Source: a virus
Taxonomy: Duplodnaviria > Heunggongvirae > Uroviricota > Caudoviricetes
DNA: 13,877 nucleotides
Virus record (IMG/VR): IMGVR_UViG_2671181033_000010
Strand: one strand, 5' to 3'
Numbering within the stretch: the first letter of the stretch is position 1; every line of letters begins with the position of its first letter. Positions 5,226-11,200 of the stretch are shown here, in pieces. The position numbers are program-made.

Positions 5226-8200
5226 GGCGTTCGTCGAAAGGTGGCGCGTTATGGCCTGCCAGGTCGTTCTGTTGTTGCGCGTGACGGTGAGGGCCGGAAT
5301 GGTGCAATTGACGGCGAATGTATACGCATCAATACTACAGATGTGGTGCTGGTGGACGGGCAATAAAAAACCCTGAATAACTCCGCCGGGTGCTTCAATT
5401 GCACGGGGCGAAATCATTCAGGGTCAGCCGTAACGGGTCTCTGTACAGGTGGCTTCAATTGCCAGAAGATAAGCGCCCGTTACCGCCAGCTGTGATAAGC
5501 CGCTTTACAGTGAGCTCCAGTTGCTCAAAGAGGCGCGTTTTTATCACAACTTTGCCGCGATAACCCGCTGTACAGAGGGCTTCAATTGCCCAAAGAGGCG
5601 CATTCTTATCGCGGCATGGCGAAATATACGCCGTTATGCTTCGTCAGTCCACTGGCATCATGGCAAATAATTTTCATCTCCGTAACGTTTGCCATATGTG
5701 CGCCACACCTCATCCTGTGCGCTTAATCCCATCTATTTCAGTGTCCTGCTCGCTGCCTTGCTTAAGCCGCCGAATGTTTCCACTGGTTCCGGTGGCAGAC
5801 GGGATTTTCTGATACATCTCGCCCGACGTTCTGCCGCTTCTTCGCGCTCCTTGTCTGTTTCAGCGTTAAGCAGTACGTCACCCCATCGGGTAGCTGCTCG
5901 TCACCATAATCCGCGTTCTTCAAGTTTTTGCGCCACGCTGTCAGCTATCATCACCATCGTCTCCGGTTGTTTGCTGCTGGCTGTTCTGCTGCTTAATTTG
6001 CGCCAGTCTCCGTTTCAGTAGTTCACTGGCGACTGATTTATCTTCTTCCGTGACTTCACCGCAAGGCTGCCCGTTCAGGTCATACCTCACACCACCAGCG
6101 ATAACAGCATTCAGGTATCTGGTTGTGTGGATATACGATATTAACGCGCCGCGTAATACGCCGTGACCAATCGGCAATTCCCGTTCCTTAGCGTCCTTAA
6201 GCACATCACGGATCACGCCAGTTTTCAGGGGCTTTATATTCTCCACGTTGAAAAGCCCGGGCCAGTATTCAGCCAGGCGGTTAATCCGTCTGTGGTTTTT
6301 TCGCTGCCGCTTTGTCATGTGCTGCCACGGTATGCGCCGTGATGGTTTACGTGCAGTCTGGTCCTGTTGTGTGGTCTGCTGGTTCATGTTGTGCTCCTGT
6401 CATTCAGAACGGAATATCGTCAGAGAACGGGTCATCACCTCCCGCTGGTGGCTGATTTCCCTGCTGTCCGGTCTGTCGTTTTGCTCTTTCCAGTGCTTCG
6501 GTCGCCTTCCCCTGTTGCCCCCGCTTCCCGCCAGGGCGCGCCGAACGGGCACTGATTACGCTGTCAGCGATAACCTGCCAGCCCTGCCGTGTTTCCCCGT
6601 TCTGTCCGGTCCACTGGCTGATCTGCATGTTACCCGCCACGCTGATAAGGTCGCCTTTTTCATGTCTCGCCACCGCGTCGGCCTGCTTACCAAATGCCAG
6701 GACTGATAGCCATAACGTCGCCTGTCCGTCCTGTGCCTGACTGCATGGCAGTGATACCGCCATACGCGCCAGCGTCATCGCTGTTCCCTTGCTGGTCTGT
6801 TTTACCTGCGGGTCGTCCACCAGCCGCCCGTAAGCTGCAATCTGTGCTGTCATGGTCTGCGCTCCTTGTTCCGGTACTCCTGGATAATCCCCATTGTCAT
6901 ATCGAATAAATCACATGCCGCTTTTTCTGCATCTTCCGCTTTCAGGTCATACAGCGTCATGAAATGGTGAGCGATTGCCCGTGCGGATCTTTTGCTGTTT
7001 GCTGAATATTTCTCATAGATTTTTTCTGCCCGCTCTTCAATATCCCGCCGGAACTCTTCACGTTCAAACAGGTCACGGTGTATCAACATCAGCGAATCAT
7101 TCAGCCATGTCACATCGGCGTATACCGTTCGCTTCCAGACAATCAGGATCGGGATATGTTTTTCATCGCAGTGATGCAGATGTTCGTCAGGTATATAAAG
7201 CGTGGCTCTGCCTCGTACCGATACGAACCTCACAACAGATTCCGTTTCACTTGTTTTTTTGATCATGAATCGTCTCCTTCCAGGCATCGCATCATTCACA
7301 CGCTTTATATATAGGAAAAACGTGTTGCCTCAGTCGCCTCAGTTGCCTCAAACGCCTTAACATATTGATTTAATTAATAATCACAAAAAAATTGAGGCAA
7401 CATCATGTCGATTTGAGGCAACAATAGGGGGTATTTGAGGCAACATTACGTTGAACGCGTTCCGTTCAGACAAACAAAACCTGTCAGCCGTGTTGCCTCA
7501 AAATGGGCAGTTGTTGCCTCAAAATGGGTAATTGTTGCCTCAAAATGAGCAATTGTTGCCTCAGTAAAAACAGAAATAAAACATATAAATCAATCATATA
7601 TATATATTTATTACTGTTTGAGGCAACTGAGGCAACATTTTTTCATCTTATATACGCGTAGTTAATCGCTTCCCTCCTCATCGTGATTAGCGAACAACAT
7701 CCCGTAGGCCCATAATTGCGCTCCATTAAGGTTCTTAAGGCGTGGGGTCTTGATTTTCCATCCTCTCCCGCTCTCTGGTCGTTTCAGCATTCCAGCTTCG
7801 TGGAGTATTTTTGCAACGGTATCCTTGTTGAAGCCTTCCGCTACTTTCGATTTAAACGGCTCCGATAATACGTAAAACAACAATGGTTCATCGTAACGGC
7901 TTCCCGAATCCCTGTAGCCGTACAGCTCAGAAATCGGCAGGCTGGCTGGGTCATAATCAACGGGCGCAAAACGGCTCATGCCGTAGGCAGCAAGAAACGC
8001 CTCTGCCTGCTCAATGATCTGTTTGTGTTCCTTGTTGCCCGTGCCAAATTCTTTTACCCAGGCATTAAATACATACTGAATTGCATCGCGGCATTCCTGC
8101 ACGGACCAGCCAGTTACATGACCGGAAAGCACAAGCGCGGCCTCCAGTATGGAGAAACGTTCACCCACGCGGTGGACCTGCTCACCGTAATTGTCTGGAA

Positions 8201-11200
8201 TGATATTTCGCCAGCGTGCACGGCTCTCTCTAACCGCGTCCTTAGCTTCCTGCTGGTTCTCCGCAAGCCATTTAATCCACTCACGCCCCGCTGCGCCGTG
8301 GTTTTCTTGCCATGCCGCCTTCAATGCGTCAGCGTGATCCTTTCCGTTGCTGTATTCGTGTAACTGCGTGGCTTTTTGAATCGGGATATTGAGCAGGCGC
8401 ACAAGTTGCCCGACCTTAACTTTTATCCCCGACGTTTTGAGGTATGTTTCGATATCCACCTCTCCGGTGCTGATAGCAACGGTCCGCCAGTTTTTCAGCT
8501 CTCTGTTGCCGCCGTCCTTTGCCCCCTGTAATTTTCCGAATCCATTGAACAAAGTGTATGAGGATACGTACACGTCACGGGGGCTTCCTGCCTGCCCTAT
8601 CTCGTCCAGTGGAAGGAGTCCGTGATTGTGTGCTTCTGCTTCGTTAGCTATCCCCAGCGCCGTTCCGTACCAGGTTAATCGCAGCGCCTCAGGATCGCCC
8701 CACAAGCTCGACGCGATGCTCTGCGTTGTGGTCTTGCCTGCTGTGGATTGCTCGAAAAAATGCACGCCAAAACCATCAGCGCCTGTCAGCCCGACTAATG
8801 GCGCGGATAATGACGTCGCTATACCCAGCATCATGAACGGATTGCCACCAGCCAGCCGCGCCACGCTGTCGCGCCAGCTTTCCGCCGTTCCTGCCACGGA
8901 ATAACCGTTAATTGCGGCACTTTTTCCGGTAAACAAAACGGGCTTGTCAGATTCGCCGATAACCGTACCGTCCGGCATGATGTACGCGCCAAAATGCCAG
9001 CCAGCCTTCGAGCTTAAGTGCCATTCCTCATGCTGTCCGCCTAACTGCATCCAGTCAGCCAGGGGGATCCTGTGTTTTCCGTTTGTCGTGACTTTAAGCC
9101 CGTTGGCTTTCAGTAATCGCCAGCCGTCAGTGTCGCCTATTCCGCAGCAAGGCACAGCCATAGTGACAAGCCGATTTGTTGTCGAATCTGTCCAGCGCAT
9201 CACGCGGTAATGCTCGTTACCAATGACACCTGAACCGAGTAATTCAACGGAAGAACACAGCCATTCGAACGGACGGATAATTTCGCCAGATTGCTTATCA
9301 ACCTTTGGCGTCACCCAGTAAACGCCATCAGGACGGCATTCAACGCGGGGTTTTAATTCGTCATCATAATTTCCGGTGAAATTTGTCTTTGCCGGAAGAT
9401 TGATCACCAGGCAGTTGCCGCGTTCCGCATCATCCTTCAGTCCAGCCATGCGCGGTGTCCAGTCCTCCGGCTGCTGGTCAACAAAGCCGCTGTAGCAACG
9501 TGCCTCCTTTACACCCGCCACCGCAAGCAGTGTTGCTATCTGTAAAAGTGCTGTCTCTGATATTTCACCAGCACGATAAACGCGCACGTAATTGCGCCCT
9601 TTATCGATGATTTTCGTGTCTTCCAGGCTCGCCAGTTGTTTCGGTCCAAGAATAACGGGCGGTGTATCATCTGCTGCAATATGCTTTCCGGCCCATTCGC
9701 TCCACTCTTTCGCATGTGCCCAGGCATCACTACCCGCAAAGATAATGACTTCGGTCATTTTGTCTTTCGGCTGTTTTTTTAAATTCGGTGCGCTTTTCAT
9801 TTCTTGCCCCTGAATGCGTTAATCATGTTTTTCATCTTTCGGATGTTCGCCTCTGCTTTTGCGTTGCTGGCTGGCTTACCGCGCGGCACGGACTGCACCA
9901 GAGAAAAATCACGCGCGAACTGATACAGCGGCATTACGCAGTCATAGTCATAGCCTTCACGGCGGTAGGCGATGCGGCGTTCTCTCACGCTGATAATCGT
10001 CACGATGCCGCCGTACTTATCGCGGTAAATATCCCTGCGCATAAATTCAGGACGAGCGGGGCCGCTGGCATTAACACCAGTATTTTTCATTCCCATATAA
10101 TTAAATTCCGTTTGTGTGGTGTTTTAATTCGTGAATTTTTTCTAACGCTCTGTTTATCTTGCTGGTCGAAATATCCAGTAATTCAGAAATGGCAAAGTTC
10201 AGTCTTGCCGTTGACTCGTCACGCTCGTGATTTGTCAGCGATTCAAACCAGACGTTAATAATCTCACTTACGGCATTGTTGTAAGATATTGCGCTTTGTG
10301 TGAGTTCATTCAGTTCATGAATCACGCGCTCATTATTGTTCATTGTATTGCTCTCCCTCCGCTATTAACCATGCCGACACATTGCCGGAAAGACGCGCCA
10401 GAAGACTGGAAATCGCGGATATATCGGCATCCGTAAGTTTGTCAGGGCATACCTCAAGAAGGCGGCAAATGATTTCAACCTGCTGCGCTCTTTCCGCAAT
10501 TTCGTTTAATGTAAACTCCTGCATTACTGCACCCCCTTAATTTCATGAACGGCGTGGATAATTACGCCGGATAAATCGGCTTTAGCTGATTTGTTAATTA
10601 CTGTGCTGATTGCAGCCTGGACGTTTTCGGCCTTCACGTTCTGCGTGATGCCAACGGTATAGCCGCGCTTGTTAACAGCACGGGAAAAAACGCGGAAGGT
10701 TTTAAGCACGGCATACCCCCTGACGAATACGGGCGACAAAAATCAGATGTGCGTGCGGCAGCTGGGCGCGTGCTTCGCGTTCAGTGGCAGCGGTAACGGT
10801 GAATACATCAATGTTGCTGTGGTGGCACTGCATAAAGCGCCAGACAAAGTAAGGGCGTGCGGATACAGCCATGTGAAAGGCTCCTACAGTAATTTTAAGG
10901 AGTCTCGCTACTACGCTGCTAAACGGGGTGGCGAGACGTAACAGGGTTAGCAGACTGGTACTGTAGGAACCAGCGAGCGCAAAGGCTCCCCCGTTACGCC
11001 CCGCCATAATGCGGGTATGGGTAGGTTTACGGACACAAAAAAACCGCATATCGGAATGTAAGCGGCTGTCCGCTACAGTATTCAGGCTGCTAAACCCGGT
11101 CGCCATGTGGGCGACTCCGGCATCATACAGCCCGAAAGAAGAGGCGATCAACATGTTTTTATCCATGTGATGCCTCCTGACGGATACGGGCGGCGAATAC

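Follow-up and report, generated by a model that had tools for sequence, protein, structure and literature searches.

The Rep proteins of Staphylococcus aureus pathogenicity islands (SaPIs) are self-loading helicases that melt their origin without ATP. This origin lies directly downstream of rep and holds 6–12 iterons in opposite orientation on either side of an AT-rich centre, and a C-terminal winged helix, situated within the C-terminal domain of Rep, binds it and sets specificity (PMC9371898). [quoted passage not shown] SSB reportedly colocalises with primase and origin in Gram-negative PICIs (PMC10111431). In this study, we compare with these systems a stretch of 13,877 nucleotides (nt) from the viral record IMGVR_UViG_2671181033_000010 (Caudoviricetes), hereafter called the window, and in particular its replication module, which comprises a DUF4222 gene, the gene of a 712-aa DUF927 protein that we call Rep, an array of short repeats, the gene of a 138-aa protein, ssb and proQ (Table 1).

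The window very probably covers the inner part of an integrated phage satellite, one of the Gram-negative PICI type, with the order int, alpA, variable Bro/immunity zone, DUF4222, rep, ori, small open reading frame (ORF), ssb, proQ, perC, in which the DUF927 Rep is the initiator-helicase at an iteron origin. The first-pass annotation had described a large primase-type gene, dense iterons, a hypothetical gene and an SSB with a DDIPF tail as a self-contained replication module. All of these are present on the minus strand, and the ORF listing shows DUF4222, rep, the 138-aa gene, ssb and proQ to be co-oriented. What had been missed is that they form the standard replicon of Gram-negative PICIs, arranged as in EcCICFT073. 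Initiator, helicase and SSB are all provided by the module itself, but it cannot be called self-contained, since we identified no polymerase gene in the window and recognised no primase domain.

Rep and its exchangeable N-terminal domain

The sole Pfam match of Rep is to DUF927 (PF06048, E = 1.9e-42, 146 bits against a cutoff of 22.6), so that of the domains suggested earlier for a profile search only this one was found, whereas TOPRIM and D5_N were absent. Within its Walker A and Walker B motifs, S352, G355, K356, T357, T358, D399 and E400 are invariant in 32 Rep homologues. The nearest solved proteins are the SaPI initiator-helicase 8tch (8.3e-14) and Cch from staphylococcal cassette chromosome mec (SCCmec; 5dgk, 3.3e-4), whose Walker A motifs align with that of Rep, and the C-terminal region of Rep was positioned as the stretch past the aligned residues 106–479 of 8tch. 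As judged from its sequence, the 712-aa protein initiates replication and acts as the replicative helicase, and it falls into the DUF927 class, to which SaPIbov1 Rep and SCCmec Cch belong.

A survey of related loci, restricted to one genome per species, returned 80 loci, in most of which aa 147–712 of Rep are joined to another N-terminus, giving proteins of ~900–930 aa. The N-terminus of these long relatives matches Zn_Ribbon_Prim (6.6e-15) and Toprim_3 (1.1e-13) and constitutes a genuine primase module of the DnaG/P4-alpha type, the exact place of which is taken in the Rep of the window by an unrelated domain of 146 aa (N-domain hereafter). Long-type relatives occur across Enterobacterales (L011–L081, e.g. 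L021 4921–7695); other relatives of ~820–840 aa have Toprim_3 and no zinc ribbon (L022, L031, L036, L056), and L011 carries yet another N-terminus with no family match. The N-domain is without a Pfam family. By exhaustive phmmer search of 1.84 billion representative proteins we found 90 relatives, in which it is always N-terminal and among which there is no canonical primase. In full-length proteins it is fused to four unrelated helicase/ATPase families, namely DUF927, D5_N/DUF5906/Pox_D5 of superfamily 3 (SF3), VapE-like and AAA_25; examples are P0143, P0146, P0147 and P0156/P0163, as well as Pri-Rep of EcCICFT073 (L082 2242–3996). What has been described in E. coli PICIs as 'four allelic variants of Pri-Rep' (PMC6092414) probably corresponds to these fusions. 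By eye, the N-terminal ~110 residues of the DUF927 protein P0038 are nearly identical to those of the D5-type EcCICFT073 protein, suggesting recent domain shuffling. The N-terminal module of the DUF927 helicase family is swapped freely.

The designation of Rep as a primase, which the first-pass annotation shared, stems from PHROG naming, the families that match Rep being labelled 'DNA primase'. It reflects an annotation habit and is not supported by the sequence; that helicases of such classes are misannotated as primases has been criticised before (PMC10061031). We consider it unlikely that Rep is a true primase-helicase all the same, with the N-domain as a minimal, divergent Toprim-type primase, so that one polypeptide would recognise the origin, unwind and prime, and only the host polymerase would be needed. 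Such a function would suit a domain that sits exactly at the Zn_Ribbon_Prim and Toprim_3 place of the ~900-aa relatives and always N-terminal to a replicative helicase, in four families, and it would suit Pri-Rep of EcCICFT073, which has the same domain and replicates a plasmid with its origin alone (PMC6092414). However, the N-terminal 165 residues of Rep gave no Pfam match to TOPRIM, zinc-ribbon, archaeo-eukaryotic primase (AEP) or D5_N families even at E ≤ 10, and residues 1–150 contain no CxxC...CxxC motif. Comparison of the N-domain by hhalign with the primase region of the relatives and with the isolated Toprim_3 yielded a probability of 0.3 and was negative in local, low-mact and global modes. 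In the alignment, read by eye, the positions of the Toprim Glu and DxD correspond to A22 and R73/Y75 of the N-domain family, and the sole acidic residue invariant across the four fusions is E17, which is located before strand 1.

The position of the N-domain suggests a role linked to priming. We therefore put forward, tentatively and as a proposal that may well prove wrong, that it represents a portable module, so far undescribed, which serves priming at non-DnaB helicases, either as a minimal primase without the Toprim acidic triad or as an adaptor through which host DnaG is recruited, perhaps jointly with the tail of the island SSB. If true, this would explain how DNA synthesis starts in satellite islands with 'primase-less' Reps. 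How islands in which the N-domain replaces a true primase module prime their DNA synthesis is in any case a lead worth following.

The predicted iteron origin and its co-variation with Rep

Searching the window with the 9-bp iteron core TGAGGCAAC revealed twelve copies within the predicted origin, eleven of them exact and one with a single mismatch; elsewhere, over 13.5 kb, just three more sites match with one mismatch. This total of 15 was reached by none of 200 shuffled windows, the mean being 3.48 ± 1.88. The array is AT-rich (GC 0.35 over 7351–7650) and consists of two units, the first with two iterons, AT1 and four iterons, the second with three iterons, AT2 and three iterons; the extended repeat of block B is TTTGAGGCAACA. 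While the first-pass annotation had placed the iterons around one AT-rich core, the AT-rich DNA within the array thus forms two, each between oppositely oriented iteron sets. The outer ends of the origin are inverted repeats (36 nt, 78% complementary), which renders the whole origin an imperfect palindrome of its two units. The DnaA box TTWTNCACA has no match in the whole window. The window's sole match to the consensus of integration host factor (IHF), WATCAANNNNTTR, is found inside AT2, with a similar match in AT2 of L085; of 76 related origins, 9 contain the motif, usually where AT2 lies, vs 2.2 ± 1.5 in block shuffles. This enrichment is modest and we do not count the IHF site as a defining part of the origin. 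A literature search for the iteron strings returned unrelated primer sequences only.

In nearly all related loci with sufficient downstream sequence, iterons are found downstream of the rep stop, and about 70 Enterobacterales loci share the layout, beginning 19–28 nt past it. A tandem iteron pair occupies the same place in 55 loci, 19–28 nt past the stop in all but one, and the layout with four blocks and two AT-rich stretches recurs, irrespective of iteron sequence, in most of 20 mapped origins from various Enterobacterales species. Half origins, in which an intergenic region of 186 nt holds the first unit only (two iterons, AT1, four iterons), occur in several relatives, the same-iteron P0003 elements among them. 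Since C, AT2 and D are absent in the close same-iteron relatives L087/L088, the mirror-image second half found in the window is probably dispensable. For the commonest class (34 species), the iteron columns carry 1.94 bits, compared to 1.08 for the spacers and 0.92 for the AT-rich stretch, indicating selection on the repeats themselves.

Across loci, the iteron sequence shifts with the last ~45–85 residues of Rep (Table 2) and co-varies with no other gene. C-terminal identity over 903 locus pairs is 70% if the iteron is the same vs 49.5% if it is different, and at matched helicase-core identity same-iteron pairs retain 67–72%, against 44–60% for different-iteron pairs. Of 5426 complete E. coli genomes, only 14 contain the origin DNA, against 1271 matched by the rep gene; the specificity end can be considered the variable part of the module. 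Layout and co-variation together strongly support the earlier proposal of an iteron origin in the intergenic repeats, on which the upstream Rep acts, and they point to the C-terminal ~85 residues as the putative determinant of iteron specificity.

Coupling within the module is partial. ATGA overlaps join the DUF4222 stop to the rep start (9797–9800) and the stop of the 138-aa gene to the ssb start (6850–6853), but 395 nt of non-coding DNA lie between rep and the 138-aa gene, and translational coupling, which had been assumed for all genes, therefore extends neither across the whole module nor across the origin. A scan of 6800–7800 on either strand detected no sigma-70-like promoter and no intrinsic terminator, which is consistent with read-through and a single long operon. 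The lack of an independent promoter or terminator at the array would also agree with the array being mainly a regulatory or incompatibility element, i.e. an operator or handcuffing site for hyp-ssb-proQ-perC or for copy number, or a partition or packaging site; plasmid iterons are established to double as copy-control and autoregulatory sites, and the array is directly upstream of the 138-aa gene, overlapping the expected promoter region. We nevertheless regard this as very improbable. The layout, with opposed iterons round an AT-rich stretch just past rep, fits the mapped PICI and SaPI origins, the repeats follow the helicase C-terminus as described above, no par genes are found near the array, and half-origin relatives keep the AT-rich core with its flanking iteron blocks, not the promoter-proximal half. 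Regulation can, moreover, coexist with origin function.

Based on SaPI Rep and EcCICFT073, we propose a model in which Rep, bound on both sides of the AT-rich stretch, would melt AT1 and possibly AT2 and assemble as a hexamer on the DNA, and in which DnaA, DnaB and DnaC would not be needed. The mirror-image second half may offer a second loading site, while close relatives would manage with the first half. As Rep is without a recognisable primase domain, host DnaG probably does the priming and host Pol III the elongation. The island SSB would act as an optional booster that coats the single-stranded DNA of the replication burst after helper-phage induction, and its host-like acidic tip may keep the fork tied to SSB-interacting proteins of the host, e.g. 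DnaG and the chi subunit, and may assist in recruiting DnaG and Pol III.

Table 1. Positions of the replication module, the parts of its predicted origin and further features in the window
Feature	Position (nt)	Strand	Description
DUF4222 gene	9797-10096	-	Pfam DUF4222 2.3e-23; directly upstream of rep
rep, 712 aa	7662-9800	-	initiator-helicase, presumably self-loading; annotated 'DUF927 domain-containing protein'; PHROGs label 'primase'
Rep N-terminal domain, aa 1-146	9363-9800	-	beta-alpha x4 fold
Rep DUF927 region, aa 157-436	8493-9332	-	Pfam coordinates
Rep Walker A	8727-8750		QSTAGKTT
Rep Walker B	8601-8618		LLPLDE
Rep C-terminal specificity region, ~aa 630-712	7665-7913	-	presumed iteron-binding (winged-helix) domain
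Predicted iteron origin	7324-7636		twelve TGAGGCAAC iterons
Block A	7619-7636		2 tandem iterons, 9-bp pitch; first iteron 26 nt past rep stop
AT1	7564-7618		~55 bp, 85-95% A+T; presumed DNA-unwinding element; position kept in related loci
Block B	7492-7563		4 iterons, exactly 21 bp (two-turn) apart; orientation opposite to A
Central spacer	7445-7491		47 bp; holds palindrome GAACGCGTTC; symmetry centre of origin
Block C	7393-7444		3 iterons, 21-22-bp spacing; orientation as A; mirrors B
AT2	7351-7392		second AT-rich stretch
IHF-consensus match	7358-7370		inside AT2
Block D	7324-7350		3 tandem iterons, 9-bp pitch, middle one TGAGGCGAC; orientation as B; mirrors A
138-aa gene	6850-7266	-	conserved; accessory
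ssb, 149 aa	6404-6853	-	OB fold, Gly/Gln-rich linker, acidic tip ...DDPFSDDIPF
ProQ/FinO-domain gene	5941-6387	-	Pfam ProQ 5.2e-24; starts 16 nt past ssb, same transcription unit
N/G run	5099-5224		~89 N, then ~37 G; flanked by 34-bp direct duplication
PerC-family regulator genes, tandem	4166-4429, 4433-4735	-	2e-24, 1e-22
YeeE/YedE transporter gene	2356-3594	-	low-GC stretch, ~0.36-0.45 across gene
Phage Q antiterminator gene	1680-2078	-	PF06530 1.1e-51; adjoins YeeE/YedE gene
C4 antisense RNAs (two)	10924-11011, 11390-11477	-	71.7 and 81.3 bits (gathering 45)
isrK-like RNA	11526-11605	-	51.8 bits (gathering 50)
Long ORF	11159-12745		RefSeq ash-family pseudogene
258-aa GIY-YIG/T5orf172 (MUG113) protein gene	12693-13469	-	weak PADLOC match to candidate defence family PDC-S57 (1.4e-8)

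Table 2. Rep C-termini and the iterons found with them
Rep C-terminal class or element	Relation to the window	Iteron
GRGWKIKTPRLKNLNGAQLWAYG	class of the window Rep	TGAGGCAAC
GRGWKIKTPRLK...AQLWAYG		TGAGGCAAC
GRGWQIRTPRLK...ARLRVYG		TGGGACAAC
GRGYQRKSPRIDGRQINVYV		TGAACCAAC
GRGYQGRVREDGRQIRVYV		TGAGACAAC
GKNWQIRTPRLKHLNNARPW		TGGGATAAG
KGVTRKSLRIDGKQPRF		TGAACCGAC
...KKKALRKMGGKQHVFYV		GTGGGTTA
...KKKALxxxGGKQHxFYV		G(T/C)GGGTTA
P0003 (E. coli)	Rep 92% identical, same C-terminus	TGAGGCAAC
P0012 (E. coli)	Rep 79% identical; C-terminal changes K>Q, K>R, Q>R, W>R	TGGGACAAC
P0016 (E. coli)	Rep core ~80% identical, C-terminus swapped	GCGGGTTA

The SSB, the 138-aa gene and the surrounding island

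The SSB is genuine, as the first-pass annotation had recognised. It matches Pfam PF00436 (2.4e-16, 60.1 bits, cutoff 26), TIGR00621 (70.6 bits vs cutoff 53.95) and 26 SSB entries of the PDB, and its C-terminal end is GGDDPFSDDIPF. With at most 31% identity to any SSB in 50,697 phage records and weak similarity to E. coli SSB (1eqq, 3.5e-6), its sequence places it in a satellite-specific lineage. An SSB follows the origin in 23 of the 80 species loci, which makes it a recurrent neighbour of such origins but an optional accessory, and most full-length homologues downstream of related origins retain an acidic aromatic tip. From established SSB biology, it may reasonably be supposed that this tail recruits host partners. 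We also considered whether the SSB compensates for an absent primase domain and rejected this, since 3 of 12 short-type Rep loci have an SSB after the origin vs 20 of 68 others, i.e. there is no enrichment.

For the 138-aa gene, the ORF listing gives a start at GTG 7299, but the RefSeq ATG at 7266, with a GGAG ribosome-binding site, is the better start. The protein is conserved, 29 columns being invariant across 14 homologues with identities down to 46%, and the gene is rare, with 20 protein clusters and a single occurrence in the 80 related loci. Profile and sequence searches returned no family match and no significant sequence match; the structural model (pLDDT, the predicted local distance difference test, 77) has a ferredoxin-like beta-alpha-beta-beta-alpha-beta core with a long C-terminal helix, and its fold matches are weak and mixed. 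In other islands the slot between origin and ssb holds other small genes. We conclude that the 138-aa gene occupies a variable slot as an accessory passenger, is co-translated with the SSB and is no core replication factor; both genes, which had been counted as parts of the module, are optional additions to it. A two-subunit primase made of the 138-aa protein and the SSB, like CcPol-MP of SCCmec or the pairs of RNA recognition motif (RRM) protein and SSB beside DUF927/D5-type helicases, which would supply the absent priming, can be set aside as barely credible, for although the ATGA overlap couples the two genes, the pair occurs together in L064, L085, L087 and L088, the core of the 138-aa protein is RRM-like as much as ferredoxin-like and pairs of a minimal RRM/polymerase-like protein with an SSB have been described beside DUF927 helicases in Bacillota islands (PMC10061031), its heterogeneous fold matches include ACT, MscS, BirA and RecJ with equal or higher scores, its hairpin strands bear no conserved acidic pair, 79 of 80 related loci lack the gene, among them those with an SSB straight after the origin, its slot in EcCICFT073 is filled by an unrelated ORF of 85 aa, and the SSB is full-length and canonical with a host-like tail.

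The window is 99.6–99.95% identical to the segment between two IS3 copies within an island of E. coli 2013C-4974, the closest complete genome (L001). This island sits between yicC and a split dinD and also carries a tyrosine integrase (Arm-DNA-bind_3, Phage_integrase), an AlpA/HTH_17 gene and a Rha fragment. The window is the exact segment between the IS3 copies (L001 12560–13773 and 27473–28686), and its nt 1–73 also match the other copy, inverted. In L001 the segment is inverted relative to int/alpA, and together with the IS3 flanks this indicates that an IS3-mediated inversion has parted the regulatory/integration end of the island from its replication end. The run of N and G in the window is an assembly or scaffolding artefact, given that window positions 1–5098 and 5225–13877 map to overlapping L001 coordinates, and ORFs called across 4820–5417 are spurious where they cross this run.

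Upstream of the module, the window carries Icd-like and ash genes. The C4 and isrK-like RNAs belong to the P4-type CI/seqA-like immunity RNAs. They map to the region that the closest genome annotates as Icd-like/'ash family', and they overlap the long ORF listed in Table 1. In Gram-negative PICIs, the variable Bro/immunity zone is reported to have such Icd-like, ash and immunity-RNA features (PMC10111431), for which reason we rejected the identification of the element as a P4-like satellite; no psu, sid or delta genes and no alpha-type protein were annotated or detected. A ProQ/FinO homologue follows the origin in 10 of the 80 loci (L002, L007, L025, L029, L031, L045, L057, L066, L070, L081), and the combination of a ProQ gene with C4/isrK RNAs suggests an RNA chaperone supplied by the island itself for its antisense-RNA immunity. 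Past proQ, the profile search of the window proteins identified two PerC genes, to which the closest genome adds a third, short one, followed by the YeeE/YedE transporter and the Q antiterminator. Reported activities of PerC homologues from E. coli PICIs include activation of the locus of enterocyte effacement (LEE) pathogenicity island (PMC6092414). Model PICIs have capsid or packaging genes at the YeeE-Q position, which renders the 'late zone' of this island atypical. The 258-aa GIY-YIG protein may be defence or interference cargo.

The module among known replicons

Several points weigh against reading the window as a PICI replicon driven by an initiator-helicase. The case for this island is a comparative one, and the Rep in the EcCICFT073 experiment had a helicase core of another family (D5_N/SF3). 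The AlphaFold2 (AF2) model is unreliable for the ATPase core (350–470) and for the C-terminal domain (590–712; pLDDT < 50), so that no fold is assigned to the Rep C-terminus and the winged helix is only presumed. Since the rep C-terminus adjoins the origin, their co-variation might in part reflect co-inheritance of one recombination block instead of DNA recognition by the protein. By its sequence, the N-domain could still be an unconventional primase, and the roles of DnaG, Pol III and the SSB tail in our model are pure inference. It should also be noted that in the closest genome the island is disrupted by the IS3 copies and the inversion, and that the element may no longer be mobile.

The module exemplifies, in well-preserved form, a replicon type that is already known, and its value lies mostly in annotation. 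A 'DUF927 protein / DNA primase' of such an island should be read not as a primase but as an initiator-helicase with C-terminal ~85 residues that would set origin specificity, and the pairing of C-termini and iterons in Table 2 could be used to derive a recognition code and to predict incompatibility or cross-replication of co-resident satellites.

Iteron plasmids such as pSC101, R6K, P1 and F oriS resemble the window in their direct initiator-site repeats, helically phased and beside an AT-rich unwinding region. However, their initiators are not helicases and need DnaA boxes and DnaB/DnaC loading, while the initiator of the window is itself a helicase. P4 alpha is, like Rep, a satellite-encoded multifunctional initiator-helicase that binds repeats in its own origin; unlike Rep, it has an active Toprim primase and an SF3 helicase, and ori and crr of P4 are separated sites, whereas the array of the window follows directly after the gene (established background; see also PMC6092414). 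SaPIbov1 Rep (8tch) and SCCmec Cch (5dgk) are 13–17% identical to Rep, which has the additional 146-aa N-domain and a Gram-negative host. The iterons of the window extend over 9–12 bp compared to 5–6 bp in SaPIs, its origin differs from that of SaPIs in having two AT-rich units and a palindromic array of 12 iterons, and SaPIs encode a separate Pri upstream, which is missing in the window. The ~900-aa proteins with zinc ribbon, Toprim_3 and DUF927 (e.g. L021, L012) are 49–63% identical over aa 147–712 of Rep, display the same origin layout past the stop and often have SSB and ProQ downstream.

The closest counterpart in gene order is EcCICFT073, which likewise features Icd-like, small ORFs, DUF4222, pri-rep, an iteron origin straight after the stop, a small ORF overlapping the ssb start, SSB and PerC. 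Identity amounts to 78% for the SSB, 66% for DUF4222 and 42% for the first ~160 residues of Rep, i.e. the N-domain (6e-29). Its genes encode a 584-aa 'DNA primase family protein', the 85-aa ORF and an SSB of 136 aa, and its origin of 288 nt has GGTAGAC/A repeats, as opposed iteron sets round AT-rich DNA, in place of TGAGGCAAC. A search of the literature after 2019 for Pri-Rep in PICIs added nothing. The two islands differ in the helicase core, which is D5_N/DUF5906/Pox_D5 (SF3) in EcCICFT073 and DUF927 (Cch/Rep-like) in the window, in the slot between origin and ssb, where the 85-aa ORF is unrelated to the 138-aa gene, in the presence of capsid genes in EcCICFT073 versus YeeE and the Q antiterminator in the window island, and in integration by phoQ versus by yicC. 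The module of the window is therefore the DUF927-core version of the known PICI replicon design.

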